Positions 18,859-42,251 of a stretch of DNA of 64,000 bases are shown in pieces (positions within the stretch are counted from its first letter, which is position 1; every line of letters starts with the position of its first letter). The notes below the pieces were generated by a model. The model saw nothing but the letters and a program-made list of their open reading frames with translations. It did not search any database and was not told the DNA's origin. Source of the DNA: an uncultured Planctomycetaceae bacterium (GTDB lineage: Bacteria > Planctomycetota > Planctomycetia > Planctomycetales > Planctomycetaceae); assembly GCA_963813715.1 (NCBI GenBank), contig CAWFAK010000008.1:384001-448000 (forward strand), read 5' to 3'. Made by a program: the position numbers and the translations under genes.

Positions 18859-18966
18859 TCGTGTGCTCCGTTATCGAGTTCCCACTCACTTGCCGTCAAA
18901 GAGCCGCGCACGCAATAAGCAGTGTCTTTTGTTTTGATTCGAGGCGATGCAAGAGCCCTCGCTCAC

Positions 18967-19949
18967 CAACTTTTTTCATCTCGTGACGTAAGTCGTTTTT
19001 TGGCATCGCCGTCGCAAGGCGGTAAAGATGAGCTTGCCTTGCACCCAGCGGTGGACGCGTCGGTGGCCGCGAACCCAAGCGGGCAGTGCCTGCAATCCGG
19101 CGCTCCAAGTGCTCAAGTATCCGAAGTAGCGTTCGATCGCGTTACGTTCTTGATGGAGGGCACGGCCGAACGAGCTTTGCGGATTCGAGAGCAGTTCAAG
19201 AGATCGCAGCCGAGCGGGACTCTGACGCCGATGGCCACGGCGACGGCCAAATCCGTAACGCGGAGGTGCCACCAGTTGCACGCCGCGTTCGAGGCAGACG
19301 TCGTGTAACTGGTTCGAGTCGAAATTTGCATCGGCGAGCAAGTACCCTTGCACAGCCGCTTGCTTCAACATCCGCCGCCCCATCGCCCGCTCATCCTTTT
19401 GCATGGGAGCCACGCGCCAGGCAGCGATCGAGCCATCGCTGCCGACCACCGCGTGTAGCTTGTACCCTTTGGCTTTGCAGCCCGCGGCGCGGCCGTACCC
19501 AGCTTGCCGGTCTTTCGAGCAACCGCCGATCGGCAGAGGCTTGCCATCGATCATCCAATACAGGGGCTTGTTCCCACGAGGAGCCAGTTCAGAACGTTCG
19601 ATCTCTTGCAGCATTTGCTGGACCTCGGCACTCCGCAGTCGTCTCGACATGGTGCTCGACGATGGCAATTTGCGGCGACGCTCATGCAGCGGCCAGTTCC
19701 GAAGATCGCACGCCCAGGACACAGGCCGACCGTGCAGAACGGCCCACAGCCAAACCTGCACAATGTCGTCTGCCCCGTATCGTTCCCGCGTGCACCGACG
19801 AAGCTTGCTCGCCTGTTTGAGAAGGATCAAAATCGCCTTCCAGAGTTGGTGTTCCACATCCGTCTCCTTTCGTGTGGTTACGATTGAGACTATGTGTAGC
19901 ACCAACTTTTTATTGCGCAAGTCTTTATGACTCCTCGCGCAAAAAGCTG
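18967..19949 (-). mobile_element. Insertion sequence copy 1 (983 bp, IS982/IS5-like DDE), inserted in a family A REP
   Basis: Short terminal IRs CAACTTTTT / AAAAAGCTG, flanked by TCAC at 18963-18966 and 19950-19953; near-identical to 41215-42199. Confidence 0.92.
18976..19857 (-). CDS. DDE transposase (DDE_Tnp_1-like), 293 aa
   Basis: IDGKPLP, GYKLH, LLADANFD, RNAIERYF; GTG start with AAAGGAG RBS. Confidence 0.9.
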   Translation of the reverse strand: MEHQLWKAILILLKQASKLRRCTRERYGADDIVQVWLWAVLHGRPVSWACDLRNWPLHERRRKLPSSSTMSRRLRSAEVQQMLQEIERSELAPRGNKPLYWMIDGKPLPIGGCSKDRQAGYGRAAGCKAKGYKLHAVVGSDGSIAAWRVAPMQKDERAMGRRMLKQAAVQGYLLADANFDSNQLHDVCLERGVQLVAPPRYGFGRRRGHRRQSPARLRSLELLSNPQSSFGRALHQERNAIERYFGYLSTWSAGLQALPAWVRGHRRVHRWVQGKLIFTALRRRCQKTTYVTR

Positions 19950-20032
19950 TCACGCTTCGGGTTGGTAAAGACGCCCCTGGCTCACGCTTCGCGTTGGTGT
20001 GTCGTCTTACTAACCCGAAGCGTCAGCGCGGG
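19950..20032. repeat. Family A REP cluster (CCTCGCTSACGCTTCGGGTTRGT): interrupted unit, direct unit 19976-20000, inverted unit 20009-20032
   Basis: Same motif at 32341-32398, 42200-42251 and 46213-46275. Confidence 0.85.
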
Positions 20033-20242
20033 ATCCTCCAGACCTATTCGCGGCCCCTTCACGATTAACGAGGCGATGACAAAAAAGACACCGCTTACGG
20101 CGTGCGCGGCTCCTTCCCACGCGCGGACGTCAGTCCACTTCCGTCCAATATTGTCCCGAATGTCGTCCCGTTTCCGACCCCTGAACCAGTCACAATATCC
20201 GCGGCGCGTCGCGGTAAGTCAAACCAGATTGTCGATTTGCGT

Positions 20243-20284
20243 CCGTGACAAAACCGTGACAATCCGGTGACGGTACGCTGACGC
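20243..20284. promoter_or_regulatory. Four direct repeats with 11-bp period (TGAC cores; TGTCAC-like on the minus strand), candidate OmpR/PhoB-type operator
   Basis: TGAC at 20246, 20257, 20268 and 20279, upstream of the desaturase. Confidence 0.55.
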
Positions 20285-20368
20285 TGTTTTTCTACCCTCC
20301 CGCTAAAGTTTCACACAGAAACCACGCACCTTCGGCCGATAGACGGCAAAAGATTACGGGAGATTTTG

Positions 20369-21337
20369 ATGGCCAGCACTGTGATTGCTCCTCCCAAGCG
20401 TCGTCGTCGCAAGAAGCAGGCGCGGCGACATCACAACTCGCCTTCGGTTGAGCGAACGGTCGCCCCGCAGGAAGTCTACGACTGGTTCAACCCCGCGCAG
20501 TTGAATTGGAAGAACATCGATTGGGTGACACTCGTCTGGATGGTCGGCATTCACGCCGGCTGTTTGGCGGCGCCGTTCTTCTTCACCTGGAAAGCGATCG
20601 GCGTCGCGCTGGTCGCCCATTGGCTCACGGCCAGCGTCGGCGTCTGCCTCGGCTATCACCGCTACCTGTCGCACAAGTCACTGAAGTTGTCTCGGCCGGC
20701 CGAGTTCTTCGTCCTCTTCTGCTCGGTTGCCTCGGGACAGGGCTCGCCGCTGATGTGGGCGGCCACGCATCGCCTACACCATCAGCGCTCGGACCAGGAA
20801 GGCGATCCGCATTCGCCCCTCGAAGGGGGATGGTGGTCGCACATTCTGTGGCTGTTCGTCAATCACACGCCCGAGCAGCGGGCCCAGCTCTATCGGCGGT
20901 ACATTCCCGATCTGGTCGATCGCCCGATCATGCAGTTCTACGAGAAGTTCTACGGCCCGGTCCTGGTCGGCATCGGCGTGGTGCTGTACCTGATCGCAGG
21001 CATCCCGGGAGTGCTGTGGGGCTTGTGCGTGCGGATGGCGTGGGCGTACCACTGCACGTGGTTCGTCAACTCGGCCACGCACCTGTGGGGCTACCGCAAT
21101 TACGAGACGCGCGACGAATCGCGGAACTTGTGGTGGGTGGCCGTGCTCGCCTTCGGCGAAGGCTGGCACAACAACCATCACGCCCACCCGCACGCCGCCC
21201 GCGCCGGACATCGCTGGTGGGAAATCGATCCGACCTGGTGGGTCATCCGCGGCCTCCGCGCCACGGGCATGGCCACGCAAGTCGACGATCGCATCCCGGA
21301 AGCCGGCGCCAAACCGGACGAAGCGCTCGTCGTTTAG
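20369..21337 (+). CDS. Delta-9-type fatty acid desaturase
   Basis: His boxes HRYLSH, HRLHH, HNNHH; VNSATHLWG. Confidence 0.92.
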   Translation: MASTVIAPPKRRRRKKQARRHHNSPSVERTVAPQEVYDWFNPAQLNWKNIDWVTLVWMVGIHAGCLAAPFFFTWKAIGVALVAHWLTASVGVCLGYHRYLSHKSLKLSRPAEFFVLFCSVASGQGSPLMWAATHRLHHQRSDQEGDPHSPLEGGWWSHILWLFVNHTPEQRAQLYRRYIPDLVDRPIMQFYEKFYGPVLVGIGVVLYLIAGIPGVLWGLCVRMAWAYHCTWFVNSATHLWGYRNYETRDESRNLWWVAVLAFGEGWHNNHHAHPHAARAGHRWWEIDPTWWVIRGLRATGMATQVDDRIPEAGAKPDEALVV

Positions 21338-21350
21338 TCGGCGCGACGCT

Positions 21351-21366
21351 GGGTGGCTGGGGTCGG
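21351..21366. repeat. 16-nt intergenic repeat GGGTGGCTGGGGTCGG (second copy at 4048-4063), tentative REP family D
   Basis: Exact duplicate in two intergenic regions. Confidence 0.45.
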
Positions 21367-21413
21367 CGTCTTCGCCACCCTCAGGCGTCGTGGTGCGTCT
21401 ACCACTAAATGTC

Positions 21414-21492
21414 GGGTGCCATGCCCACCGGTTTCGGTGGGCATCCGCGATTCGCAGCGGAAAACATGCCCACGCCGGGCCGTGGGCATGGC
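21414..21492. repeat. REP-like inverted pair, family C (GGGTGCCATGCCCAC-loop-GTGGGCAT)
   Basis: Hairpins at 21414-21444 and 21465-21492; third unit at 47266-47297. Confidence 0.75.
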
Positions 21493-21643
21493 TGTCAGAT
21501 CGCGATGGACGGACCAGGTTTTCGCCGCTCAGTGCCGACGGCAGGCACAGCCTGCCCTGCCCAAGGCGTTCGTGATCGCGTCGGTCATTTTTGCTCTGTC
21601 GGCGCACTCTGTCCGAGGGTATCGCGAGACGCGTCGGTCGCGC

Positions 21644-23045
21644 TTACTCGATCACCTGATAAACCGCTCCGCCGCCGGGCGGCAGCGTCACTGTGATGCT
21701 TCGCCCCGACACTTGAAGGGCCGGCGCATTCCCCATTGGGACTAGCGACTGGACCTTTCTGTTCAGCGACAGGCTGATCGAGCCCGACGTTCGCTCCGGC
21801 GACGAAACGATCGCCGCATAAGTCACACCCCCTGGGCCGCCGAGGAAATTGAGGTAGTCTCCCGGCATTTGCCGACCCGATAAGCTCACGGGCGTTGGGT
21901 TCGGCGGAGAATGAATCAGCGTGTGCGACGCAAGCAGGATCGTCTGAACCGATTGGATATCGGGAATCGTTTGAGTCTGCAGCTGCACGAGCTGGGGCCC
22001 TGGCGTGTACCCCGGAAAACTGACGAGCCCGGGATAGCTGCCGGTGTTGTAGGCCTTCTTATAGGCCCAAGATGCTCCGCGCGGCGGTGCCGTCGCATCC
22101 GTCGACACCCACTCTGGAATCTGCGCGTAGACAAAAAAGATGACGCCTTTGGCTCCCATCGCAGCAGCCGCCCAAGCTTGCCACGATGCTTGCGCAGGCG
22201 TCGGCATCTCCCACTCGAGTCCGGAGCCCGCCGCGACCGTGACCGTTCCATTGGCATTGATCACGGAGGTTCCTTCCACTCCCTGGAACGCCTGGCCCAT
22301 CGCCCAGACTTGCGGGTTGCCCTCCTCGTACGCGGTCCCAATATCCGCCGCCATGTCGAGAAAATACGAGTAGGAACTGTTTCCGGTTGGCCCCGAGTTG
22401 GGATCGGCGAAAAAGGGATAGCGATCGAACGAAACCCAGGTCAGCGTGTTCACCGCTTTCAAGATCGTCGAGACGGTGCCCGGAGCCAGCACGGTCGTTA
22501 CGGGCAGATTGGCAGCCTGGGCCTGGGTCACATACGACGCGAGTTGTTTCGCATCCGCGGCCGGCGGTTCGTCGCCCAAACTGAAGGCGAACGGTTTCGT
22601 GTTGGCTCCATTCCAGATCGTTCCCAACGTCTCCAGAGCCGATGCGATGAAGGCGTTATTGTTCTGCGACGCGTTCAGGTAAAAGTCCCCGTCGGAGCCG
22701 TTGATGTTCATGACTCCAAACTGCTGCGCAGCCGCGGCGAACTCCGACACTTCGGCACTCGTGGCTTCAGGACCATCGGTCGTCCAAACCAGATTGAAGC
22801 TGTTGTTGGCCGTCAGGACGGGGAAAAAAGTCTGGGTCAAGAACGGAGTCAGGTTTTGTGCGCGATTGGCGGGGGTGTCCGTGTAGTCGGGAATGTAGGT
22901 CGTTTCCCAAGCCGTATACACGCCGAACACAAACTGCGTGGTCGGCGCATTGGTCTGGGCGAAATTGTTCGCAGTTACGGGTGAGAACGAGGTGACGACC
23001 AAAAGCAGAGAACAGCAAAGAAAGAGCAAGTGTCGTGGTTCTCAT
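21644..23045 (-). CDS. Secreted protein, putative glycoside-hydrolase-like TIM barrel; start uncertain (23029 or 23045 with frameshift)
   Basis: Signal peptide; FSLGDEP, VSFDRYPF, VWAMGQAF, AAAMGAKGVIFFVY; beta-rich C-terminus. Confidence 0.55.
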
Positions 23046-23413
23046 CTTTTGGACCTTGAAAACTGCGGTGGGGATTGCAGCTTTTTTGCCACAACTCAGG
23101 ACGTAGGCGGGTCTCGATCGAAGAGGCTTGCGGTGGCAGCCGATTGAGGGCGGAGAGAGCGGACAATCCCAGCGGGCGATTTCCTGGAAGGATACGGCGA
23201 CTGCGCAATACACGAGACATATGGCCGGATGCGCTGCTGCAAATCAAGCGGTAATTGTCAAGTTGAGCCGACAAACGATGAAAATGGCGCCGTCAATTAG
23301 TGGACAAACGTTTCAAGACGCGCCGACAACCCCGGGCGGGCCGCAGTGCATCCGCTGGGTGCGCCGCCAAAATCGAGCGCGAGCCCGATGCACTAACCGT
23401 GGACTCTCTAATC

Positions 23414-25306
23414 TCAGCGAACGGCTGGCACCCCCTGACCTGGGTCGATCGAAGTCCGCCCCACGGTGGCGTCTCGCGGTTGGGGGACAGAATTGTCCCG
23501 CGGAACTCGCAAATAGCCGAGCGTCTGTCGCAGGATCTCCGCGGCGGCTGGGGCGGCGACCGTTCCGCCGTAGTGGGTGCCGCTCGTCGTCGGTTCGTCG
23601 ACGACGACCAGCACGAGCACGCGCGGCGCGGCGGCCGGGGCTCCGCATAAGAAGGAGCTGACGTACTTGTCGGCCGAGTACGTTCCCGTCGCCGGATCGA
23701 GCTTTTGGGCTGTCCCCGTTTTGCCGAAGACTGAATAGCCGGGCAAATTCGCTCGCGTGCCCGTGCCGCGGAGGACGACGTCGCGCATCGGCCCTTCGAT
23801 GAGCCAGCGTGCCGATTCGTGATCGGTCGGGCGGCTGACAAGGGGCGTCGATAGCGGCAACTCTCTCCCACCTTCGGCCGGCGCGTCGAGTGTGCGGCCA
23901 TCGAGCGTACGCAACACGAGCTTGGGCGAGATCAGCGTCCCGCCGTTGGCGAGTGCGGCGTGGGCGGCGATCATCTGCAGCGGCGTCACCGCCAACTCCT
24001 GGCCGATCGAGAGCGACGCGTTCGAGTACGACGACCAGCGCTTCACCGGATGCACCAGGCCGCCAATTTCTCCGGGCAGCCCCGAGCCGGGAACGCGGCC
24101 GAAGCCGAACGCGGCGATCGTCGCGAACAGCTCGGCGTTCGACAGCCGCGCCCCGATTCGCGACATGCCGATGTTGCTCGACTTCACCAACACGTCGGCC
24201 ACGCTGAGCAGGCCGAACGGATGCGTGTCGTGAAAGATGCGGCTGGCGAGGTGTGTTTCGCCGCCGGCGCAATCGATCGCCTCGTCGGGCCTGACACGGC
24301 CGCGCTCGAGCGCCCCGGCGACGACGAACGGCTTGAACGTCGAGCCCGGCTCGTACATCCAGGCGATGGCCCGATTCATCCAGGCTTCTTCCGAGACGCC
24401 TTCCGGACGGTTCGGATCGAAGGCCGGCCGCGACGCCATCGCGAGGATCTCGCCGCTGGCCGGATCCGCGACGAGCGCGACGGCCCCGCGCGGCATCCAC
24501 TCGGCGACGACCCGATCGAGCTCGCGCTCGGCGTAAAGCTGGACGATCGAATCGAGCGTCGTCACGACCGAGCGCCCGGGTTGCGGCGGAATATCGGTAT
24601 CGTCGGGCACGTCGATCACGCGGCCCCGCGCGTCGCGGTACAGCGTTCGCCTTCCCGGTTTCCCGCGGAGGACGGCCGCCAACGACTGCTCCAGGCCGCC
24701 GCGGCAATTTCCGTCGACGTCCCGCAGACCGAGGACGTGGGCCGCGAGCGCCCCCTGCGGATATCGGCGGACGAACTCGTCGCGAAATCCCCATGCGGCC
24801 GGCGGCAGGTCGAGCGCGCCGACGGCTTGCTCTTCCTCTGGAGTCAGCCGCCGCTTCACCCAGGCGAATTTCTTGTCGTCCCGCTGTAGCCGCTCGCAGA
24901 GGCGACCGGCATCGAGACCCAGCGCGCGGGCGACGCGCTGTGCGGAAGGCCACGGGTCAGCGATTTTTTCCGGCACGACGAACAAGCTGCGGGCGACAAC
25001 CGACGTCGCCAGCACGCGGCCGCCGCGGTCGAGCAAATCGCCGGGCGGCGCGGGCAGCAGCTCGACGTACGATTTCTGCCGCGTCCCCCGCTCCGCCAGC
25101 CGCGCGCGTTCGACCACCTGCAGCTGCACGAGCCTCGCTGCGACGGCCAGGCCGCCCAGCGCGAGCATGCCCACGATCATGCCGCGCCGCAGCCGAATGT
25201 TGGCGGGCTTCCCGGGGCGCCGTAACAACGGTGCGCGCACGGGCGGCGCAGTGGCAGCGAGGGTATCCGCATGAGACGGATCGAGGGGCGCGGGCTCTGC
25301 GGACAT
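23414..25306 (-). CDS. ftsI: Class B penicillin-binding protein (FtsI/PBP3-like)
   Basis: N-terminal TM; GDLLDRGG, RRYPQG, GLEQSL dimerisation motifs; intact STFK, SSN and KTGT catalytic motifs; dcw position. Confidence 0.85.
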   Translation of the reverse strand: MSAEPAPLDPSHADTLAATAPPVRAPLLRRPGKPANIRLRRGMIVGMLALGGLAVAARLVQLQVVERARLAERGTRQKSYVELLPAPPGDLLDRGGRVLATSVVARSLFVVPEKIADPWPSAQRVARALGLDAGRLCERLQRDDKKFAWVKRRLTPEEEQAVGALDLPPAAWGFRDEFVRRYPQGALAAHVLGLRDVDGNCRGGLEQSLAAVLRGKPGRRTLYRDARGRVIDVPDDTDIPPQPGRSVVTTLDSIVQLYAERELDRVVAEWMPRGAVALVADPASGEILAMASRPAFDPNRPEGVSEEAWMNRAIAWMYEPGSTFKPFVVAGALERGRVRPDEAIDCAGGETHLASRIFHDTHPFGLLSVADVLVKSSNIGMSRIGARLSNAELFATIAAFGFGRVPGSGLPGEIGGLVHPVKRWSSYSNASLSIGQELAVTPLQMIAAHAALANGGTLISPKLVLRTLDGRTLDAPAEGGRELPLSTPLVSRPTDHESARWLIEGPMRDVVLRGTGTRANLPGYSVFGKTGTAQKLDPATGTYSADKYVSSFLCGAPAAAPRVLVLVVVDEPTTSGTHYGGTVAAPAAAEILRQTLGYLRVPRDNSVPQPRDATVGRTSIDPGQGVPAVR

Positions 25307-25321
25307 CCGAGCGTGCCCTGA

Positions 25322-25636
25322 TTAGTAGTCGCGAGTGCCGGTTTCGTGCTCCGCCACGATCGCCGGTCGCCGTGCGACCTCAGCGTGCGATTTGCCCGTC
25401 GCTTTGCCCGCGATCACTTCGCGCCGCTCGTTCTCCAGCGCATCGAGCAGCCGGGCCGGGGCGCCGAGCTGCTGCGTCTGCAGCCGCTGCCGCGCGTAGA
25501 GGTCGCGCAGAACCTCGTAGCGATAGTGCTCGCGGGCCAGCGCGCGGCGGAGCGTCAGGCACCGTTTTTCGAGGGCGATCCCCGAGACGGCAACCAGCAC
25601 CGCCAGCACCAACGCCGCACCGAAGCGAAAATACAT
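25322..25636 (-). CDS. FtsL-like small bitopic coiled-coil protein
   Basis: TM followed by a Leu-periodic helix and QQLGAPARL; sits immediately upstream of ftsI. Confidence 0.55.
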   Translation of the reverse strand: MYFRFGAALVLAVLVAVSGIALEKRCLTLRRALAREHYRYEVLRDLYARQRLQTQQLGAPARLLDALENERREVIAGKATGKSHAEVARRPAIVAEHETGTRDY

Positions 25637-25646
25637 CGCTTCGTAG

Positions 25647-27535
25647 TTATCGGCGCTCGTCGACCTCGCTCGACAGTCCGACGCTGCTGGCATCGCCGGG
25701 CAGCGCCAGCTCGAGCCCGACTTTCACTTGGTTGGGGTTGGACAACTTATCGCGGTTCATCTCGTAAATCTGAATCCAGCGCGACGAACGCCCCAGATGC
25801 TTGGACGCGATCTCCGAGAGCGTGTCGTGCTCGCCCGTGCGATATTTCGCGGTGCCGTCGGGGCTGATGAAGAATCCGGTTGGCGCGGATTTGGCGGTTG
25901 CGTCCTCGGCGGCCGTCGTCTGCACCCGCGTGCCCGCCGGCAGGAACTGGCCATACTGCTCCTCCAGCACCTCGACCGGCGGCGTGCTGACCTTCATGCC
26001 CGGACGCATCCGGCTCGGATCGGGAATCCGCGACTTGTTGAGCTCGGCGAGCGCCTGGAAGTAGCGGGCGTTGCCGTATTTTTTCCGCGAGATGGTCCAA
26101 AAGTTGTCCTGCGGCTGCACGACGTAGTAGTCGCCGGCGTCGCTGGTCGTTCCCACCGGCGAGACGGCGCCGGGGCTCGTCGTCGCGTGAGCCGGCTGGG
26201 CGAGCGGATTTTCGGCCGTGGCCGAGGGCGAGAACCTTTCGGCCGAACCCGACTGAGAAAACCTTTCGGCCGAACCCGTGCCCGCTCCCGGTCGATTGCC
26301 GCCAAACGGATCGTCGGACCCAGCCGCCGGACGGGGCTCGCCGTTTTGCACGAGCGTGTTGCTCGACGCGTTGAGCGACGCCGTGCCGGCGGTGCGCTGT
26401 TGCGGCGGCTCGCCACCAAACGGGGAGTCGCCACTGCTGGGCGAGCGTTCGTTGCCACCCAGGAGCGCTTCCGCCCTGCCACTAGTCGACGCTCCGGCCA
26501 TTGGCGCGCCCGCGGCGGCCGCTCCTCCACTCGGGCCGCCGGGATTGAAGCCCTCCGTGCCGGTGGCGTGCGCATTCTGATTGAAATGGACCACGCCGTT
26601 GCCGGCCGTCGTCGGGTGCCCGACGTGCGGGTGCTCGTCCAGCGTGTCGTTGTCCAGCGGCTCACTCTGCGCGGGTGGATTGCGGCCTGCATTGTTTTGG
26701 CCCATCTGATTTGGCAGCTGGGCTGTCTTCGCGAGGCCCGCCGGTTCCAGTTGATTCTCGCGTCCCGCCATGTGCTGCGGATTTTGCCCCGCCAATTCGC
26801 GGCGGCCGCCATTCTCGTCCGGGAAGAGGTTCTGCATGTCGGAGTCAGCTTTGGCGGCCGTCGCGTGCGGAGCGCCGGCGCTTCCTGCCGGAAGGCCCGC
26901 GTTCTGACCGCGTGAACCCGCGAAGTCTTGGCCGCCGTTCGGCGGGAATTTACCATTCGGCTCGACTCTGCCTGAGGGCGACGCGTTGTCAAAGGGAGAC
27001 GCGCCGCCCTGCGCCCCGCCAGCGACCGGCTGGCCAGGCTCCGACTGTGCCGGGGGCTGTTGCGGCCGACGCTCCGGTTGTCCGCCCAAGTCTCCGAATG
27101 GATTGGCTTCGGTCTCGTGTCCGCCCGCAGGGGCGGAGTGGCCTGCCGGTGTCAGTGCGACGGAGCCGGCACCCGCGCGATTCTGTTGACGATTTCGCTC
27201 GGCCGGATTCACACCGCGGTTGGCACCCTGTTCGTCGAGCGAGCCAAAGCCGTTGGCCGAAGTGCCGCCGAGATGGGCGATGCCGGCCGTTCTCTGCCCA
27301 GCGACGCGGCGCCGCCGGTAAGATTTTCGTGAGTATTCCCGTCGTGCTCGCCGTCAAAGGGCGAGTTGCTCGCGTCGGCGTGCTTCTCCCCCGCAGCGCC
27401 CTCGGTGCCGGGCGCCGTCGCGTCGACGGTCAGCGCGTCAGGGTTGTGCTTGGCTTCCTGGTACTTGCGATAGGCGACGAAGCTGAAGACGCCGGCCAGC
27501 ACTACGACTAGCACCAGCCCCAGGATGCGACTCAA
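25647..27535 (-). CDS. Membrane-anchored protein with a long low-complexity linker and two C-terminal LysM domains; frameshift near 27210
   Basis: TTG start overlaps the rsmH stop (TTGA); TM ILGLVLVVVLAGVFSFVAY; LysM1 YVVQPQDNFWTISRKKYG; LysM2 YRTGEHDTLSEIASKHLG. Confidence 0.8.
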
Positions 27536-28533: not shown

Positions 28534-29225
28534 TGGCTTTATGCGAAGGCGTTTGAGTTGTGTTGTGAGCGAGCGCTACGAGACGGGAAATGAGAGCGTT
28601 GGGTAGTTGCTGGTCGAAAGCCGGTCGCAGCCGCCCCGACGGATTTTGGCCCGAGGAAACTCGGCCCGAAAGGAACTTTGAGGGGGAATCTTAGAGGGGA
28701 GGTTGCGGGCTCGACCGCCGAAGGGAGGCGCTTTTACGAGATTTTCAGAATCCTGAAAACCCCAAAACGCCGCGGGGAGGAGCCGTTTCGCGCCAATCGC
28801 GGGAGGAAAAAACGCACCCGCGGCGAAGCGCGGGCAGAAGAAAATGCGCCCGCGGTCAGCGCGGGGCAGAATTAAACGGGGCACGCGGCGGCCGGCAGGG
28901 CGCCTGCCCGCGCCGCGGCCCCCAAATGCCACTGGCAAAAAAGTAAACCGAGCCATTCGCCTCCGGGAGACATCCTTGGCTCCCGATCGGAGAGGCGAAT
29001 GGCTCATGGACTAGCAGGACAGGGTGGCCCTGCATCAACCGTCCATAGGTTTACCGGCGAAGCCTCCTGCTTCCCGTGTCCGCAAAGCCCGGTAAGCCAG
29101 CGGATTATTCCTGCGAAACTGATGCAATTTCGGTCAACAACGCGGCGCTTCGATCATCAACGGGGCGCTTAATCAACAACGTGACGAGTGGAACGAGAAC
29201 CGTCGCGGCGGCGAACAGACGAACG

Positions 29226-31094: not shown

Positions 31095-31188
31095 GAGGTT
31101 TGCGCGACGGGAGGGTTCGCGCGGCAGGGTTTCGCGCGAGACGGAACGCTTTTCGACTTCAGTCTAACAGGTGAATGGCCCGCCGCAG

Positions 31189-32257: not shown

Positions 32258-32340
32258 CGTCTGTTTCCTAGTTAACGGCTTTACTCACTCAAAGACGCAA
32301 AGGTCCCGAAGCAAGTAAGCTCGAGGACAATTGGAGCTTT

Positions 32341-32398
32341 CTTCGCTGACGCTTCGGGTTAGTGCAGACGATAAACCAACCCGAAGCGTCAGCAAGGG
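32341..32398. repeat. Intact family A REP inverted pair
   Basis: CTTCGCTGACGCTTCGGGTTAGTG ... ACCAACCCGAAGCGTCAGCAAGGG. Confidence 0.85.
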
Positions 32399-32437
32399 CT
32401 CTTGCAGGGTGGCCCGGCTTGCATCTTCGGCCGCAAT

Positions 32438-34486: not shown

Positions 34487-34595
34487 AGACAGACAGATCG
34501 AATTCGCAGCCACAGCTCGAATTGGCTGCGCCAGGCGGGGTTTTTGTTTGCGCCGAATCCGCCGCTAGAATGACGGCATGAGCGACAGTCAGGGC

Positions 34596-34667
34596 CCGCC
34601 CTTAGTTCAATGGTTAGAACGCGCTCCTTATAAGGGCGTAATCCGGGTTCGATTCCCGGCGGGCGGA
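34596..34667 (+). tRNA. tRNA-Ile with UAU anticodon (CCA not encoded)
   Basis: Cloverleaf: acceptor CCGCCCT/CGGGCGG (one mismatch), D-stem GTTC/GAAC, anticodon stem CGCTC/GGGCG with loop CT-TAT-AA (34629-34631), T-arm CCGGG-TTCGATT-CCCGG, discriminator A. Confidence 0.9.
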
Positions 34668-34754
34668 TTTCCGCCCGACATAAACTCCCGTGCCGCTGAC
34701 GACCACGTGACACTCCCGACCAGCTGACACGATCTACTCGACGACGCCCACAAA

Positions 34755-36254
34755 ATGACGCTGCCGATGAATGCTGCTGACACGTCCGCGGCCCCCTCCC
34801 GTTCGCCCGGTTCGGGCACTGCTCCCGCCCTGCTCGCCCGGTTTCGCGACATCGTCGGCGAAGGCGGCCTGCTGTCGGCGGCCGAAGAGCTGCTCGTCTA
34901 CGAGTGCGATGGCTACGTCGTGGAGAAGAAGGCGCCCGACGTCGTGCTGTTCCCCGAAACGCGGGAGCAAGTGGTCGCCATCGTCAAAGCGTGCAACGAA
35001 TTCGACGTCCCGTTCGTGCCGCGGGGTGCCGGGACGAGCCTGTCGGGCGGCTGCCTGCCGGTCGGCGGCGGCGTAATGATCGCGCTTACGCGGATGAAGC
35101 GGATTCTCGAGGTCAATCTCCGCGATCGGTACGCCGTCGTCGAGCCGGGCCTCGTCAACGTCCACCTCACGCAGCATCTCAAAGGGACCGGCTACCACTA
35201 CGCTCCCGATCCGTCGAGCCAGGGCGCCTGCACGATCGGCGGCAACGTGGCCACGAACTCCGGCGGCCCGCACACGCTGAAATACGGCGTGACGGTGAAT
35301 CACGTGCTGGCCGTCGAAGTCGTGCTGCCCGACGGCTCGGTCGTCGAGCTGGGCAGTCCGACCGGCGACTCGCCCGGCTACGATCTGACGGGGCTTTTCG
35401 TCGGCAGCGAAGGGACGTTTGGAATCTGCACACGAATCACCGTGCGACTGACCCGCAACCCGGCCGCCTATCGCACGCTGTTGGGCATCTTCGAGACGGT
35501 CGCGGACGCCACGCAGGCGATCAGCCGCATCATCGGCGCGGGCATCATCCCGGCGGCCCTCGAAATGATGGACCAGGGGATCGTCGGCGCGGTCGAGGCG
35601 GCGTTTCATTTCGGCTTTCCGCTCGACGCCGGCGCCGTCCTCTTAATTGAGGTCGACGGGCTGGAAGTGGCCGTCGACGAAGAGGCCGAAAAAATCGTCG
35701 CGCTCTGCCAGGCAGCCGGAGCCCGCGAAGTCCGCCGGGCCACGACCGAAAAAGAACGCCTGCTCTTGTGGAAGTGCCGCAAGCAGGCCTTCGGCGCGAT
35801 CGGCCGCTTGAGCCCCAGCTACTGCACGCAAGACGGCGTCGTCCCCCGCACGCGGCTGCCGGAAATTCTGGCTTTCATCACCGAGTGCGGCACTCGCCAC
35901 GGCATCCGCATCGTGAACGTGTTTCACGCCGGCGACGGCAACATCCATCCGATCCTGCTCTTCGACGAACGCGACACCGCCCAAGTCGCCCGCGTCCTCG
36001 AAGCCAGCGACGAAATTCTCGGCAAGTGCATCGAAATGGGCGGCAGCGTGACGGGCGAACACGGCATCGGCGTCGAAAAAATCAGCTTCATGGACAAACT
36101 CTTCACGCCCGACGACCTGGCCGTGATGCGACTCGTCCACGACGTCTTCAATCCCACCGGCCGCTGCAGCCCCCAAAAAATGCTCCCCACCGCCGGCGGC
36201 TGCGGCACCGAGCAAATCGAACGCAGTGCCCCGGGCCGCCGGGCGGCGCTGTGA
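34755..36254 (+). CDS. glcD: Glycolate oxidase FAD-linked subunit
   Basis: PRGAGTSLSGG, APDPSSQGACTIGGN, GSEGTFG, HAGDGNIHP, GEHGIGVEK. Confidence 0.9.
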   Translation: MTLPMNAADTSAAPSRSPGSGTAPALLARFRDIVGEGGLLSAAEELLVYECDGYVVEKKAPDVVLFPETREQVVAIVKACNEFDVPFVPRGAGTSLSGGCLPVGGGVMIALTRMKRILEVNLRDRYAVVEPGLVNVHLTQHLKGTGYHYAPDPSSQGACTIGGNVATNSGGPHTLKYGVTVNHVLAVEVVLPDGSVVELGSPTGDSPGYDLTGLFVGSEGTFGICTRITVRLTRNPAAYRTLLGIFETVADATQAISRIIGAGIIPAALEMMDQGIVGAVEAAFHFGFPLDAGAVLLIEVDGLEVAVDEEAEKIVALCQAAGAREVRRATTEKERLLLWKCRKQAFGAIGRLSPSYCTQDGVVPRTRLPEILAFITECGTRHGIRIVNVFHAGDGNIHPILLFDERDTAQVARVLEASDEILGKCIEMGGSVTGEHGIGVEKISFMDKLFTPDDLAVMRLVHDVFNPTGRCSPQKMLPTAGGCGTEQIERSAPGRRAAL

Positions 36255-36576
36255 GCGCAGCTCAAGGCAGAGCCCCGGCCTCTCGCTCCTTGTCGGACTG
36301 TTCGACCCGGATGACGCGGGACTCGTCCTTGAGTTTGCGAAGTTCGTCGAGCACGATCCGAATTTGTGCGTGATTCGCTTCTCGACGGAGGCATCCGCAG
36401 CGGGATCAACACAGGCTTGAAGTCGGGGGACAGAGACATCAGTCCCTCGCGGTGCGGCTGCCCAGTTGATGGATCGTTGCCTGTCAGCTCGAACCAAATA
36501 TAGGCGCGACTTCCGATCTGACCTGAAATCGCCTGAATCTACTCGGGCCAGACGTGCTTCCCCGGAAAGGGGTGGA

Positions 36577-39122
36577 TCAGCATTTCTTTTCCCACATCGG
36601 TCGATACCGTCGAAGAGGTGAGAGCCGGGAGGCGTCTGTGGCTAATTTCACCAGGAAGTCACACCGGTCCTTGGCGAGCAACGTGGCCGATCCGCCGTGC
36701 TCCGCCGACGCGTCGATCCCGGCTGCTTCGATCAAGTCTGCCGCATGCTGCTGCAGCAAGGTGGTGCGAAACGTAATCTTGAGCCGCTGCGGTTTGCGAA
36801 GCTCTTGCAGGAGGTGCTGGATTTGTTCGTGGACCGGCTGCGTCTGCCCAATCACCAGGGAGAGCGTCTTGTCGACGTGCTGAATTCGCCCCTCACCGCC
36901 CGCCCCTTCCCAGCTTTTGGGCTCGGCCGCGGTCCGGATGAGCTTCTCCAGTGAATTGAAGTCGATCTTTTCGTCGCGGACCGCTCCAGACTGCGGCTGG
37001 GAAGCCAGCAACAGATCGGCGACCGGATAGGCGAGAAACACCAACGGGTCGGCCGGCGCGAGCAGGAACATTTCGTCCTGGAATTCGCATCGCACGCCCG
37101 CTTGCTGAAACCCTTGTTTGAGAACCGATTCGAGCGTCACCTCTTTGACGTGCATCGTAATCGGCGCTTGCAGGTTTACCGTCATTGAGACGACGACGTT
37201 GCCGAGATGCCAGTCCTTCCACATGTGATCAATAAACTGTCTCAGAGACAACTTTTCGCAATCGAAGTTCATGCGTCGCTGCAAAGCCTCGCGCAGCTTC
37301 TTATCGGCTGGAAACTCGATCCGAAGACTCCCATTCTCGAACTCATATCGCAAATGCAGCTGATCGAAGATGCGTTGCAAGGCGACGGAAACGGGCACGT
37401 CGGCGACATGCAGCGTCACGTGTTGGGGACACCGCGCATCAAGATTCGCCGCTTCGTGAGCCTCGAGAAGCTTCTGCGCACTGCGCTTGGCGTCAGATTC
37501 GGATCCCGGAAAATGGAAATAGGGATAGTGGAAGGTGCTAAACGGCTGCTCGTAGCGAAATTCGATTTTGGGACGCTCGCGAAAAATCTGCTCCAGGACT
37601 TCAGAGAGCGGCAGATTGTCGCAGTCGATGGTGACGTGCCGATCCAGTTGAGGCACGACGGCGTGCGATTCCGGGCGCTTTCGGGCAGGCTCGGCAGGAC
37701 GCCAATCGCCGAAGTGTTTGAGCGCCTGGCGAATCTCTTCTTCCGTTTGGATCCCCGACAAGGGGATTCCCTGGTCGCCCGAATTGATCCAGATTGTCGG
37801 AACCGCCTTGACCTTGAATCGTGTCTGCTCGCCGGTCATGGGAGCGTTGACATCGACTTTGATGATCCGATGTCCCTCCGCTTGCAGTCGGTCGATGATC
37901 GGCATCATCTGTTGGCACGGTGGGCTGTTCTTTGAATAAAAGAAATAAGCGTAGGTGGGCCGATCGTCGGGATGACCAACCATCGGCGACGCCTTCGCTG
38001 CCGGCTCCTCCTTCCCCTTCGCGGCTCCGCGGACAAATTCGTCGGCCAGCAGGTGGTCTCGGAACTCGGCCTTGAGGCTCAGTAAGGACGTGCCTTGCTC
38101 GCGAAGCTTCTTGTTGACGTCGAACGCCGTCGCGACCTTAAAATCTCTTTTCAAATTTTCGACATACTTGTTGAACTCGTCCGTAATCGCATTCTCGGCC
38201 TTCTCTCTCTCCGCCTTTCCAAGCGAGGCGATCATGGCTTGCGCCCACCCGCGGGTGTTGAGGTAATTCTGGGAAAACTTACGCAGCGCGAGCAGTTGCA
38301 GTTGCCGGTAGTCCGACTCCTCGATCTGGCCGGCGGCCAAAGCCTTTGTCGCCGTCGCCAGGCTGGTGTCGTCGGGAGTGAGCGGCTCGGTCCACGCCCG
38401 CTGAAAGATGTCCGACGCAAGCACAGGCTGGCCGTCGACCGACGCGATCATTTCGTTGCCCGTCATCTTCTTGCCGCTCGTCGCCTGCAAAGCTCTCAAT
38501 GTAATTCTTGATCTGCACCACTTTGCGATCGGGGATCGCAGCAGCCGGGGGATCTCTGGGCGTAATGATGACGTTCCAATGACTGACTTTTTCCGGGGCG
38601 TTGGAAGGGTCGGGCGGCGCGAAGAACTTGCCGACGATCGAGCGCACCGTGTCTTCGCGATTCAGCCCCCTCAGCGCCGTCAACCCGTTCGGTTGTTTCA
38701 GGATGAGCAGGGGATGGAAGGAAATCGGATCTGGGTCCACGCCATATTTCTGTTTTAGGTCTTGCGCGATGTCGATCTTGGTGATGGGATAGCCTTGTCC
38801 CCGCAGGTGGTCGATCAAGGGTGTCAACAGTTGCGACTCGCTGTCGCTCCGCGAGTAGATGTAATAGGCGCCGTCAGCGAGTGGCGCGGTGCTGCCGGAC
38901 TGCTTCTCAGTCGTCTGCGGCGGGGCGGCGGGAGGGGACTTCTTCTCGAGCAGCTCGCGCAATACCTTCACGTCGTGCCGCAGGTCGCGGACTTCGTCGC
39001 GAATTTGCTGGAGGGCCGGCTGCAGGTCGGTGTCGGCCGACTGCGCGGCCGCCGGCGAGGGCCGCCAAGGCGATGGACGTCAGGCCGATCGTGGTCAGGC
39101 TGGTACGGACAAAACAAAACAT
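36577..39122 (-). CDS. Large secreted multidomain protein (coiled coil, two thioredoxin-like domains, SurA-N-like region, STN/secretin-N-like repeats); frameshifts near 39060 and 38490
   Basis: AAGGAAGGA RBS and signal peptide at 39122; YIYSRSDSESQLL and YFFYSKNSPPCQQM; IASVDGQPVLASDI; YPVADLL...SLVIGQTQPVHEQIQHLL. Confidence 0.65.
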
Positions 39123-39175
39123 GGGGAAGCTCCTTCCTTGGCTGCGGAAATGCCGCGCGGGCGTTTGGCTGAGCG

Positions 39176-40753
39176 TCATGGCTCTGCTCCCTTCGAGAGG
39201 TCCGCTCGATCTGGGCCGGCTGAGGAACGGTCGGCCGGCGTGATGGTGGTGAGCGTGAGTCGTTGATAGCGGTCGTCTAGCTGTGTCGCCCTTGCCGCGA
39301 TCCGGCGTGCCAGCTCGACGACCCGTACATCGTCCGGCCGCCGCGTCTCGGCCAGGTCGATGACTGCATCGATTTCGCCGTGTAATTGGTCCAGTTCGCG
39401 GCCTAACGCCGTCGCCGCTGCCCGCTCGCTCGGCGAAAGTGACGCGAACGCAGCTCGCTCGCCGCGTCCGTCTGCGAGTGCTACGGCCGCGCTGGCCAGC
39501 ACCGTCGTTCGCGGCGCGGCGCAGACGAAGAGGCTCGCGATGCCGACCGCGGCCAGGGTGACGAGTCGGCCGCGGGCACGGGTGTTCCACGCATCGCGAA
39601 CCGGCGTGCCGTTGAGCAGCCGTTCGACCCGTTCGCCCAGATGCGAGACGGCTCCCAGTGCCCAGAGAGCCTGGAGCCGGGGGGCGGTCGGCGAATTGAG
39701 CGCGGCGATTTGCGTCAGGCAGCGAGCGAGTGCCAGGCCGTTTGCCGCACGAGTCACGGCCCATTCGTCGCAGAGGATCTCGGCCGAGCGACGCCATTCG
39801 CGACGGGCGAGAAAATTCAGCGGCTGAAACGCGAAGCACGAACAGAGGATGCGGCCCCACCAGAGCCAAATCGCATCGCCGCGGACCAGATGCGCCGCCT
39901 CGTGCGCGAGCAGGGCGTACACCTCGCTCGAATCGAACGTGCGCAACACCTCTTCGGGCAGCACGATCGTCCAACGAAAGACGCCGAAGGCCGCCGGCTG
40001 GCGAAACGTCGGCGAGGCGAGAAGTCGAAACTTTCGACGCACGCCGCCGTGCCGCGCAATCCGCTCGAGCTGCCGGCAGACCGACGGTTCGCCGATGACG
40101 CGACAGTCTCGCAGTCGTAGCGAAAGGAGGATCGTTTGCCACGCGAGCCTCACGATTCCCGCGCAGCAGAGGGCGATCAGCAGGCCGGCGAGCCAGGTTA
40201 AGGCTAGCGAAGCGCGCGGTCTCTCCGGTGCGAGCGGCGCAACGTTGTCCGAGGTCGCGCTCGACACTGGCGCGGTCAACGCCGGCTCGCGTCCGCCCGG
40301 GGGCCGATCGGCGACGAACTCGATTGCCGCCAGTGTGCGATCCGGTTCGGCAGCACCGTCAACGAGCGGTGCGCCCGCGTCTGCCCGCGGTGCTTCTTCC
40401 GACAGTAGCGACACCGTGGGCACGCGCTCATCGGGCGAAGCGGCGAGTTCGGCAACGGGTTCGCCGAGTTTTTCCCGGATCGACGTGCCGCCGAAGGCCA
40501 GGTCGAGCGTTGGGGGCGAGAAGCCTAACTCCAACTCCAGAGGCGCGGTGACGAGGGCCAGCACAGCCGACAGTTTCCAAAGTCGTTCCTTGAGCCTCTC
40601 GCTGCGAATGCGGCCCGTGCGGATGGCCAGCCATGTTCCGCCTAAAAGCAACGTCGAGTGCAGCAGGTACGTGGTCGCGAGCGTCAACGTCGCCGGGGCG
40701 AACGATGCGGCGGCGAACGATGCGCGGATGAGCGTCGACAATTCATTTGCCAT
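39176..40753 (-). CDS. BlaR1/MecR1-like M56 peptidase signal transducer
   Basis: TM segments, PAAFGVFRWTIVLP, LAHEAAHL zinc motif, AEILCDEWA. Confidence 0.9.
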   Translation of the reverse strand: MANELSTLIRASFAAASFAPATLTLATTYLLHSTLLLGGTWLAIRTGRIRSERLKERLWKLSAVLALVTAPLELELGFSPPTLDLAFGGTSIREKLGEPVAELAASPDERVPTVSLLSEEAPRADAGAPLVDGAAEPDRTLAAIEFVADRPPGGREPALTAPVSSATSDNVAPLAPERPRASLALTWLAGLLIALCCAGIVRLAWQTILLSLRLRDCRVIGEPSVCRQLERIARHGGVRRKFRLLASPTFRQPAAFGVFRWTIVLPEEVLRTFDSSEVYALLAHEAAHLVRGDAIWLWWGRILCSCFAFQPLNFLARREWRRSAEILCDEWAVTRAANGLALARCLTQIAALNSPTAPRLQALWALGAVSHLGERVERLLNGTPVRDAWNTRARGRLVTLAAVGIASLFVCAAPRTTVLASAAVALADGRGERAAFASLSPSERAAATALGRELDQLHGEIDAVIDLAETRRPDDVRVVELARRIAARATQLDDRYQRLTLTTITPADRSSAGPDRADLSKGAEP

Positions 40754-41126
40754 GCCGCCCCTCCTTCTCCCGGATGAGCTCTTTGAGCCGGGCCAACTCT
40801 TCGGCAGAGACCTCGCGACTGTCGAGCAGATGGCTGACCATCTCAGCCAGGTCGCCGCCGAAGAGCCGCGCGGTCAGGTCGGCAAGCATCGAGCGGCGGA
40901 CGTTTTCTCGTTGCACGGCCGCCCGGTAAATGTTCACTCGGCCGTCGGACCGATGACGGACCTGGCCGTTGCGTTCCATCTTGGCCAACATGGTGCCGAC
41001 CGTGGTATGGGCCAGCGGCCGCGACTTGTGCAGGGCCTCGCGCACGTCGGCCACCGTGGCTTCGCCGCGTTCCCACAGCACCTGCATGATGGCTAGCTGC
41101 AAGGTCGCCAGTTGATGTTTGGCCAC
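40743..41126 (-). CDS. BlaI/MecI/CopY-family repressor
   Basis: LAIMQVLWERGEATVADV, LAHTTVGTMLAKME, LFGGDL; overlaps the M56 gene start. Confidence 0.92.
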   Translation of the reverse strand: MAKHQLATLQLAIMQVLWERGEATVADVREALHKSRPLAHTTVGTMLAKMERNGQVRHRSDGRVNIYRAAVQRENVRRSMLADLTARLFGGDLAEMVSHLLDSREVSAEELARLKELIREKEGRHGK

Positions 41127-41214
41127 GATACGATTCTCTCTCGCGTGTCTTGCTCGATCGAGGACGAGACTAGTCGGTCAGTCGAAGCGTGTATCCTGCA
41201 GTGACCTCGCTCAC

Positions 41215-42199
41215 CAACTTTTTTCATCTCGTGACGTAAGTCGTTTTTTGGCATCGCCGTCGCAAGGCGGTAAAGATGAGCTTGCCTTGCACCCAGCGGT
41301 GGACGCGTCGGTGGCCGCGAACCCAAGCGGGCAGTGCCTGCAATCCGGCGCTCCAAGTGCTCAAGTATCCGAAGTAGCGTTCGATCGCGTTACGTTCTTG
41401 ATGGAGGGCACGGCCGAACGAGCTTTGCGGATTCGAGAGCAGTTCAAGAGATCGCAGCCGAGCGGGACTCTGACGCCGATGGCCACGGCGACGGCCAAAT
41501 CCGTAACGCGGAGGTGCCACCAGTTGCACGCCGCGTTCGAGGCAGACGTCGTGTAACTGGTTCGAGTCGAAATTTGCATCGGCGAGCAAGTACCCTTGCA
41601 CAGCCGCTTGCTTCAACATCCGCCGCCCCATCGCCCGCTCATCCTTTTGCATGGGAGCCACGCGCGAGGCAGCGATCGAGCCATCGCTGCCGACCACCGC
41701 GTGTAGCTTGTACCCTTTGGCTTTGCAGCCCGCGGCGCGGCCGTACCCAGCTTGCCGGTCTTTCGAGCAACCGCCGATCGGCAGAGGCTTGCCATCGATC
41801 ATCCAATACAGGGGCTTGTTCCCACGAGGAGCCAGTTCAGAACGTTCGATCTCTTGCAGCATTTGCTGGACCTCGGCACTCCGCAGTCGTCTCGACATGG
41901 TGCTCGACGATGGCAATTTGCGGCGACGCTCATGCAGCGGCCAGTTCCGAAGATCGCACGCCCAGGACACAGGCCGACCGTGCAGAACGGCCCACAGCCA
42001 AACCTGCACAATGTCGTCTGCCCCGTATCGTTCCCGCGTGCGCCGACGACGCTTGCTCGCCTGTTTGAGAAGGATCAAAATCGCCTTCCAGAGTTGGTGT
42101 TCCACATCCGTCTCCTTTCGTGTGGTTACGATTGAGACTATGTGTAGCACCAACTTTTTATTGTGCAAGTCTTTATGACTCCTCGCGCAAAAAGAGCTG
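41215..42199 (-). mobile_element. Insertion sequence copy 2 (985 bp), inserted in a family A REP
   Basis: TCAC duplication at 41211-41214 and 42200-42203; differs from copy 1 by about 4 substitutions and a 2-nt insertion at the end. Confidence 0.92.
41224..42105 (-). CDS. DDE transposase, 293 aa
   Basis: Same protein as 18976-19857 with three amino-acid changes. Confidence 0.9.
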   Translation of the reverse strand: MEHQLWKAILILLKQASKRRRRTRERYGADDIVQVWLWAVLHGRPVSWACDLRNWPLHERRRKLPSSSTMSRRLRSAEVQQMLQEIERSELAPRGNKPLYWMIDGKPLPIGGCSKDRQAGYGRAAGCKAKGYKLHAVVGSDGSIAASRVAPMQKDERAMGRRMLKQAAVQGYLLADANFDSNQLHDVCLERGVQLVAPPRYGFGRRRGHRRQSPARLRSLELLSNPQSSFGRALHQERNAIERYFGYLSTWSAGLQALPAWVRGHRRVHRWVQGKLIFTALRRRCQKTTYVTR

Positions 42200-42251
42200 T
42201 CACGCTTCGGGTTAGTGAATACGACAGACCAACCCAAAGCGTGAGCGAGGG
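42200..42251. repeat. Family A REP pair (left unit interrupted by the IS; inverted unit 42228-42251)
   Basis: TCACGCTTCGGGTTAGTG ... ACCAACCCAAAGCGTGAGCGAGGG. Confidence 0.8.

Follow-up and report, generated by a model that had tools for sequence, protein, structure and literature searches.

The window analyzed here is a stretch of 64,000 nucleotides from an uncultured Planctomycetaceae bacterium, corresponding to C8:384001-448000 of its genome assembly (G000; 7,488,327 bp in 18 contigs, 63% G+C, marker-gene completeness of 82.6%). It carries two copies of an insertion sequence (IS) of about 985 bp, each with a single gene for a DDE-type transposase. Each copy interrupts a repetitive extragenic palindrome (REP) of a family that we call REP-A, and intact units of the family are also found in the window (Table 1). 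A preliminary description of this DNA, made from its letters alone, had reported the two copies, their coordinates and their common orientation, all of which we find to be correct, and had read them as the work of an element with site-specific targeting. On the evidence set out below, we are highly confident that this is an autonomous DDE IS that inserts almost only at the 4-bp center (TSAC) of the REP unit CCCTCGC/TSAC/GCTTCGGGTT.

Table 1. Features of the two insertions, their target repeats and their surroundings, numbered from the first base of the window
Feature	Position	Strand	Basis or remark
Genes flanking both insertions	17595-18554, 20366-21337, 39176-40753, 42496-43725		Divergent pairs
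REP-A outer half CCCTCGC, copy 1	18956-18962	+	Sequence; half present beside 5 genomic copies
Left target-site duplication TCAC, copy 1	18963-18966	+	Sequence; orthologous site in G002 has one tetranucleotide
IS copy 1, 983 bp	18967-19949	- (transposase strand)	BLAST boundaries; a 983-bp contig of soil run X1 has exactly these limits
Terminal inverted repeat, transposase-stop end, CAACTTTTTTC	18967-18977	+	Sequence
Transposase coding sequence, copy 1, 293 aa; GTG start six bases after AAGGAG	18976-19857	-	Open reading frame
Possible 5'-leader hairpin, 16-nt arms 88% complementary	19844-19859 and 19892-19907	-	Repeat analysis
Terminal inverted repeat, promoter end, GCAAAAAGCTG	19939-19949	+	Sequence
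Right target-site duplication TCAC, copy 1	19950-19953	+	Sequence, metagenome joint
REP-A inner half GCTTCGGGTTGGT, copy 1	19954-19966	+	Sequence
Two intact REP-A units, same cluster as copy 1	19976-19995 (+), 20012-20031 (-)		Sequence match
Intact REP-A doublet without IS, folds as long hairpin	32341-32360 (+), 32378-32397 (-)		Fold z-score -5.9
tRNA gene, sole Rfam match in the window	34596-34667		Rfam
REP-A outer half CCTCGC, copy 2	41205-41210	+	Sequence
Left target-site duplication TCAC, copy 2	41211-41214	+	Sequence; empty site in G002 has a single TGAC in an intact doublet
IS copy 2, 985 bp, extra AG near promoter end	41215-42199	-	BLAST, sequence
Transposase coding sequence, copy 2	41224-42105	-	Open reading frame
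Right target-site duplication TCAC, copy 2	42200-42203	+	Sequence; GCTTCGGGTTAGT follows
Inner half of interrupted unit, copy 2	42204-42216	.	Sequence; inverted partner unit 42231-42250 completes the doublet
Intact REP-A unit, partner of copy 2 target	42231-42250	-	Sequence match
Intact variant REP doublet, 5-nt center TGACC/GGTCA	46213-46274	.	Fold z-score -9.5

Insertion sites and their empty counterparts

When the IS and one TCAC are taken out, the 20-mer CCTCGCTCACGCTTCGGGTT is rebuilt at both window copies, as had been claimed. A BLAST search of the whole genome found 10 copies of the IS, of which 8 are full length, one lacks the last ~20 bp (C8:43846) and one is internally deleted (C8:42864). 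Collecting these copies and tabulating their flanks revealed no copy outside a REP: all 10 sit at the same point, CCCTCGC/TSAC/GCTTCGGGTT. Five of them (two on C8 and one each on C12, C5 and C9) are oriented as CCTCGC-N4-[IS]-N4-GCTTCGGG, and the reverse orientation, CCCGAAGC-N4-[IS]-N4-GCGAGGG, is found on C11, C7 and C2, at C8:43846 and in the internally deleted copy. The 4-bp duplication is perfect in five of the eight copies with both junctions intact (TCAC three times, GTGA once and GGAC once), and the GGAC/GGAC pair shows that these four bases belong to the target rather than to the IS. Because the sequence outside the REP is different at all of the insertion sites, the 10 copies represent separate insertions, which is also how the preliminary description had interpreted the differing flanks of the two window copies. 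The 7.5 Mb hold about 80 REP centers, and the chance that an insertion at random would land on one is about 1e-5.

REP-A is well represented in the genome, with 12 exact occurrences of the intact 20-mer, 54 at up to two mismatches and 73 at up to four. Among 94 loosely matched units, the center is TCAC in 23 and TGAC in 21. The intact REPs that had been listed for the window are real, with small corrections to some coordinates (20012, 32378 and 42231); the one at 46213 proved to be a variant with a 5-nt center. No Rfam family matched the REPs or the IS in the window. The genome has eight matches to PF01797, the Y1 transposase of the IS200/IS605 or RAYT type, including C3:75290-75631 and C12:190957-191178, and none of the eight has a REP-A unit within ~1.5 kb; the assembly is 82.6% complete, and a RAYT may be missing from it.

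Natural empty alleles exist for both sites. A sister species (G002) has the sequence on either side of both window copies, 81-92% identical and contiguous but for the IS. The site 2 alignments join at G002:C10:388142/3 within an uninterrupted doublet, CCCTCGC-TGAC-GCTTCGGGTTGGT...ACTAACCCGAAGC-GTCA-GCGAGGG, and at site 1 an intact CCCTCGC-TGAC-GCTTCGGGTTGG stands opposite TCAC-[IS]-TCAC of the window. The region 18600-20300 is also present in many soil metagenome runs, and the contigs of four runs were compared with it. In soil run X1, a contig of 10,078 bp joins 18962 to 19950, skipping 987 bp (the IS and one repeat), with four letters that fit either side; the same run holds the IS as a contig of its own, exactly 18967-19949, at a depth ~3.5 times that of the flanks. 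The 18962/19950 joint recurs in a 303-nt contig of X16, an RNA-type library. As the contigs of X1 and X16 carry the empty joint, the copy 1 insertion is polymorphic in nature and its boundaries are as inferred. Together, the 10 genomic copies and the empty sites in G002 and the soil contig bear out the earlier claim of site-specific targeting. Contigs of RNA libraries also cover the IS (X15, 1,063 nt at 18951-19950; X16, 19019-19785), but DNA is possible there and they are not counted as expression; bins lacking cover in X15 and X16 carry no evidential weight either.

A separate observation concerns the REP doublet at site 2 (41205-42250, compared with G002:C10:~388100-388200, L048). It carries a compensated change, both arms having TCAC in the window and TGAC in G002, and its inner part, including the loop, is reverse-complemented between the two species, with the hairpin kept.

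Both window copies are intergenic, and the genes on their two sides are divergent: a YdjC-like gene and one for a fatty-acid desaturase flank copy 1, and those for an M56 peptidase and an FAD oxidase flank copy 2. The two insertions and their REP clusters are probably in promoter regions; REPs are classically found at convergent gene ends. The intergenic positions fit the safe-harbor interpretation that had been proposed for the element. They would also be expected if insertion were random or regionally biased and purifying selection had spared only the harmless copies in REPs, which are themselves intergenic. We consider this account very improbable, as selection cannot account for the use of one and the same phosphodiester bond by 10 of 10 copies and also by dozens of relatives, and intergenic DNA far exceeds the ~80 REP centers.

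The transposase, its relatives and their targets

The transposase exceeds the Pfam gathering scores of PF01609 (DDE_Tnp_1; 48 bits against a cut-off of 23) and PF13612 (DDE_Tnp_1_3; 29.8 bits against 27). These are its only Pfam matches: neither an rve catalytic domain nor an IS110-type DEDD recombinase was found by Pfam in the single 293-aa open reading frame (ORF). The best NCBIfam model is that of IS982 (NF033520; 51.7 bits, E-value 8e-14), with a match limited to profile positions 36-199 of 243 and a score far below the cut-off of 130. The IS5 models (IS5_3, 36.7 bits against 110; IS5_2, 29.3 against 140; IS5_4, 16.3 against 140), IS1182 (35.9 against 270) and IS4 (19.6 against 115) are likewise under their cut-offs. 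Judged by these curated models, the transposase is best described as IS982/IS5-like and not as a member of IS4, IS5 or IS982, which agrees with the cautious 'like' of the preliminary description.

Across 20 aligned homologues, D103 and D175 never vary and E241 is at least 90% conserved (numbering follows row 1 of alignment A1, without the initiator), making them the candidate catalytic triad. E241 stands in the context R-x3-E-R-x-F. Conservation is also strong over the N-terminal ~100 residues, which are tryptophan-rich. The best solved relatives of the AlphaFold2 model (mean predicted local distance difference test score 79) are piggyBat transposase, retroviral integrases and the ISCth4 transposase, at template modeling (TM) scores of only 0.2-0.4. 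Despite the low TM scores, the predicted fold is of the RNase-H-type class expected of DDE enzymes.

A database search returned 3,390 relatives of the transposase at an E-value of 0.001 or below. The best 120 of these are 58-76% identical to it (the query's own entry excepted), and 118 of the 120 are 288-301 aa long. The contigs of most relatives among the matches listed are ~1-2 kb. For annotation, it is useful to know that REP targeting accounts for the way in which these elements break short-read assemblies into contigs of ~1 kb with REP halves at their ends. The nearest Atlas clusters are labeled Planctomycetota, on very few members, and the annotations of cluster members read solely 'hypothetical protein' or 'Transposase DDE domain'. 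A single-protein scan of genome contigs gave only two loci, and both named records are Planctomycetota metagenome-assembled genomes (MAGs). An even sample of the phylum had a match in 2 of 401 genomes, including the window's own, with up to five candidates scored per genome, and indicates patchiness at best; among related genomes, 6 of 41 had a match. The transposase had no match in the plasmid collection.

Relatives at 45-67% identity in four other genomes occupy the same kind of site. In the complete genome G019 (47% identity), all four copies have perfect 4-bp duplications, at CCGACGC-GCAA-GCGTCGG, CCCTCGC-TTGC-GCTTCGGG, CCGGAGC-TTGC-GCTCCGG and CCGGGGC-GTGA-GCTTCGGG. In G026 (51% identity), both copies lie in CCCGCAGC-GCAA-GCGAGGG, again with 4-bp duplications. 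With up to three mismatches allowed, G019 has 184 occurrences of CCCTCGCTTGCGCTTCGGGCT and G026 has 298, compared with 0-1 of its reversed control. As these genomes represent a different genus and a different family within the same class, the REP family, with a TTGC center in G019 and G026, is old and widespread in this bacterial group. REPs have been reported in Planctomycetes (PMC3733652).

A broader view comes from metagenome contigs, in which a profile-based scan found 80 loci. The ends of the IS were set solely by a conserved 11-mer and its inverted partner, which resolved 56 of the 80 loci and left out 24; a further three were left out for short flanks, so that the 53 analyzable loci have at least 12 nt of flank on both sides. 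Of the 53, 51 have GC directly to the left of the 4-nt center and 52 have it directly to the right. Both half-sites fit CC-N2-3-GC/N4/GC-N2-3-GG at 45 loci and one half fits at 4, compared with 0.03% of random positions of this genome that fit both. Two loci (L053 and L054) match the query at 99-100% identity and hence are not independent of this genome; the count without them is 43 of 51. At the 24 loci where the two REP halves are different, the flanking tetranucleotides are direct repeats (at least three of four bases match in 19) and never inverted. One locus, L057, has the palindrome CGTAGGTTGTGC-TTCA/TGAA-GCACAACCTACG with a GTAG tag and GC on either side of the 4-nt center; such a tag is typical of REPs associated with REP-associated tyrosine transposases (RAYTs).

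G000 itself holds a sibling IS, 60% identical, in two copies at C7:~471800-472800 (L029) and C5:~250300-251300 (L030), the latter directly adjoining a copy of the main IS. Its ends are GAGGATTTT... and both copies lie in a second palindrome, GGTCCCAAGC-N4-GCTTGGGACC; the main IS is found in REP-A in 10 of 10 cases. A close relative of the sibling in G002 has four of four copies (L004, L010, L015 and L019) in the same second palindrome. In a tree of 59 transposases, four of the five users of GGTCCCAAGC-N4-GCTTGGGACC form one clade beside the clade of the window IS, with L056 elsewhere. Because two siblings in one genome use different palindromes, target choice is encoded by the element, and the pair isolates specificity to the element.

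Two features of the sibling copies are worth recording. Their ORF is split near residue 195 in both G000 copies and in two G002 copies (C13 and C4), and is unbroken in G002:C14; the split could reflect a slippery site or programmed frameshifting, or it could be an artefact of sequencing. In three of the six copies (L004, L015 and L029), the flanking tetranucleotides are reverse complements (TCCC...GGGA) instead of direct repeats, and the flank and the IS end together form a perfect inverted repeat of ~25 bp. Recombination of oppositely inserted copies, or a template-switch 'correction' of the quasi-palindrome, is a possible source of this pattern.

An inverted repeat of this length, in which the flank and IS end combine to ~25 bp, is seen in 18 of the 53 metagenome loci as well as in some sibling copies. 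It would be expected if the REP halves were long terminal repeats of the element and the REPs its footprints or miniature derivatives, with no target specificity at all. We regard this as highly improbable for several reasons. The IS is found in both orientations relative to an asymmetric REP, and the halves vary (GGTTGG, GGTTAG, GGTTCG) around an IS that is 98.5-99.8% identical. Moreover, 54-73 intact units have no IS, orthologous empty sites have an intact REP, and the similarity of the REP to the ends or interior of the IS is no better than chance. The orientations and the varying flanks around a constant IS also settle a point raised by the preliminary description, as they show that the REP halves do not move with the element.

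Taken as a whole, these observations lead us to favor, by a modest degree, a wider interpretation: that an unclassified PF01609 clade with thousands of members, mostly from soil Planctomycetota, consists of obligate REP-center specialists. These would share a quasi-symmetric site of ~18 bp, protein-only readout and a 4-bp cut, with siblings re-tuned to different palindromes and the whole co-diversified with the REPs of its hosts. The clade-wide pattern is in itself evidence that the targeting habit is a conserved, heritable trait of a large clade and not a quirk of a single element. If the interpretation is true, the clade offers a natural series of transposase-target pairs for reading the recognition code, which would open the rules of recognition to testing.

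How the target might be recognized

REP-A half-sites share the frame CC-N3-GC/N4/GC-N3-GG, which is the same on both strands and so fits entry in either orientation. We propose that the transposase cuts the REP center with a 4-bp stagger and that repair duplicates TSAC, and that the approximate two-fold symmetry of the site allows entry either way round. The transposase itself would read the sequence of the duplex, probably in dimeric form and with a half-site for each subunit, and no RNA guide is apparently involved. With REPs lying between genes, insertion spares coding sequence, which may benefit the element or the host. The trait is common to a large, mostly planctomycete clade, in which sibling elements have been re-tuned to other palindromes.

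The main competitor to such a duplex-reading mechanism is recognition of structure, in which the transposase would bind the palindrome as a hairpin or cruciform and insert at its axis or loop. As a rule, REP-A units come in inverted pairs ~17 nt apart, REPIN-like doublets that fold into stems of ~28 bp (z-scores of -6 to -9.5). Relatives use unrelated palindromes of the same geometry, namely GGTCCCAAGC-N4-GCTTGGGACC (where N4 would be a tetraloop), CCGACGC-GCAA-GCGTCGG and GTAGGTTGTGC-N4-GCACAACCTAC, and insertion at a symmetry axis has been noted for ISPsy8 and ISRm22 (PMC1525189). Against this, the 4-nt center of REP-A, and with it the insertion point, lies mid-arm in the doublet stem and outside the doublet loop, and a single unit is not self-complementary around its center (CTC vs TTC). 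At least two occupied units (C5 and C11) have no visible inverted partner, and one can reason that an insertion into a stem formed within one strand would sever that strand. We therefore consider recognition of structure unlikely, while giving it more weight than any of the other alternatives.

Guidance by RNA, as performed by the bridge or seek RNA of IS110/IS1111 elements, also has to be considered, as the REP-specific IS621 and ISPpu9/10 work in this way. The least probable of the explanations that we have weighed, it is one to which we give almost no credence. The protein is a PF01609 DDE transposase and not a DEDD recombinase, and the IS has a 4-bp duplication and terminal inverted repeats. 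The non-coding parts of the IS are only ~9 and ~92 nt long and the complementarity between IS and REP is at the level of shuffled sequence, both of which argue against an RNA guide.

A number of observations weigh against REP-center targeting by readout of the duplex, or limit how far it can be taken. All of the support comes from static genomes and assemblies, with no transposition observed, and every curated IS-family model of NCBIfam remains below its cut-off, so that any family placement is tentative. Among the eight genomic copies with intact junctions, two have a hybrid duplication, TGAC/TCAC, and one lacks a base. Four of the 53 metagenome loci have neither half-site pattern; L002 (55% identity) is not in a recognizable REP, and L095, with a true TTCC duplication, has a REP-like half on one side only. 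In 18 of the 53 metagenome loci, the same REP half stands on both sides, with the tetranucleotides inverted (at least three of four bases in 16) and never direct. We tentatively attribute these same-half loci to chimeric short-read assembly or to recombination between IS copies, the arrangement being the one expected if the junctions of oppositely inserted copies were combined; no such arrangement was found for this IS type in the well-assembled G000, G019 and G026, but copies of the sibling IS do have it. The frame alone occurs at 682 sites in the genome, of which only 41 are in REP-A, and therefore more than a loose consensus must be read. The frame with a TSAC center occurs at 42 sites, 25 of them in REP-A, which makes targeting of REPs only marginally distinguishable from pure sequence choice, and ~12 specified bases could nearly explain the restriction to REPs. 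Finally, the data are compatible with recognition of duplex sequence and with that of structure.

The hybrid duplications have a pattern of their own. In all four examples (C5:249253-250269, C2:4636-5621, L053 and L054), TGAC stands beside CCTCGC and TCAC beside GCTTCGGG. This polarity is independent of the direction of the IS and, with n=4, is not significant. Insertion into the stem of an extruded hairpin was considered as a source of TGAC/TCAC and rejected by reasoning on topological grounds.

Comparison with known elements, and anatomy of the IS

The preliminary description held that REP targeting was documented mainly for IS3 and IS110 members. This is incomplete, as ISRm22 (IS4), ISNm1106 (IS5) and IS256 elements are already covered by Tobes & Pareja (2006; PMC1525189). 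These authors define a type 1 association, in which every copy lies in a REP, always at one position, and the REP can be reconstituted, with ISPsy8 (IS3), ISPa11, ISPpu9, ISPpu10 and ISRm19 (IS110) and ISRm22 (IS4, with Transposase_11, i.e. PF01609) as members, and looser associations for ISRm5 (IS256) and ISNm1106 (IS5). The present IS has every type 1 feature, namely 10 of 10 copies in REPs, a single position and a REP that is rebuilt, together with real empty alleles. Insertion at a REP axis is thus not new, as a PF01609-type element (ISRm22) and members of IS3, IS110, IS256 and IS5 were described in 2006 (PMC1525189). REP-specific insertion as such has been known since IS1397, IS621 and the 2006 survey. 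New in the present case are its group of hosts, a transposase clade that is unclassified, filled and empty alleles found in nature, conservation of the habit across the clade, and two sibling elements with different palindromes in one genome.

The mechanism of the present IS most resembles that of ISRm22 from Sinorhizobium meliloti, which also has a single PF01609-type transposase and 10 of 10 copies at the same REP point (PMC1525189). ISRm22 inserts at the axis of palindromy, its duplications end in GC pairs on both sides, and some of its copies have hybrid direct repeats, which the authors attributed to recombination between copies (PMC1525189). It differs in having 6-bp duplications, against 4 bp here, and in its host phylum and REP sequence, and a clade-wide habit, as shown here, is not examined for ISRm22 in the accessible text (PMC1525189). 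ISRm22 is filed in IS4, whereas the transposase described here scores only 19.6 bits with the NCBIfam model of that family; the duplications of the IS4 family are ~10 bp (PMC2266710), compared with 4 bp for the present IS.

The other parallels are less close. IS1397 and ISKpn1, from enterobacterial palindromic units (PUs), are DDE elements specific to REPs or PUs with a short duplication, like the present IS, and experiments with both, cited in PMC1525189, indicated that the transposase sets specificity. They have two ORFs, OrfA and OrfB, with an rve domain, whereas the present IS has one ORF with PF01609. IS1397 and ISKpn1 insert into the loop of the palindromic unit. The IS110-family elements IS621, ISPpu9, ISPpu10 and ISPa11 resemble the present IS in being base-precise, with every genomic copy in a REP. 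Targeting in this family is now known to be RNA-guided, and its members have DEDD recombinases, a bridge or seek RNA, no duplication or one of 2 bp, and mostly no terminal inverted repeats, none of which applies here. ISNm1106 from Neisseria meningitidis is also of the PF01609 type and is enriched beside REP-like repeats, but this association is only type 2, with 4 of 7 and 7 of 14 copies near or adjacent to REPs, no broken halves and no single point (PMC1525189). The resemblance to the IS982 family lies in the best curated match (NF033520) and in a PF13612 score over cut-off. Elements of that family are ~1 kb long with a single ORF of ~290 aa, which fits the present IS, and their terminal repeats are longer than the ~11 bp found here. 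In the literature searched, there was no account of IS targeting of REPs in Planctomycetes, nor of IS982-like elements with palindromic targets.

The element therefore provides a clean example of REP targeting in a different host group, its nearest named records being Planctomycetota MAGs. Few DDE transposases are known to settle on a single site with no RNA to guide them, and guide-free enzymes of this kind are of practical interest as insertion tools.

The copies of the IS differ from one another by 2-15 nt, and the family has therefore been active recently. Copies 1 and 2 differ at seven aligned positions. The transposase ORF is fully intact in six copies, copy 1 among them; the C12 copy has an in-frame stop and the C9 copy a frameshift. 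Within C8:42367-43898, two decayed copies lie in tandem in a single REP: a 17-bp repeat of the left REP flank replaces the final ~20 bp of the first, and the second has an internal deletion of ~470 bp. The ends of the IS are CAACTTTTTTC and CAGCTTTTTGC, and the terminal inverted repeats CAACTTTTTTC and GCAAAAAGCTG match at 9 of 11 positions, in line with the figure of about 9 bp given earlier. The possible leader hairpin (19844-19907) would enclose the ribosome-binding site and the GTG start. Inverted repeats in the leader are a common means by which ISs block translation from read-through transcripts, and pairing of the start codon region with upstream sequence is a possible, putative form of translational control here.

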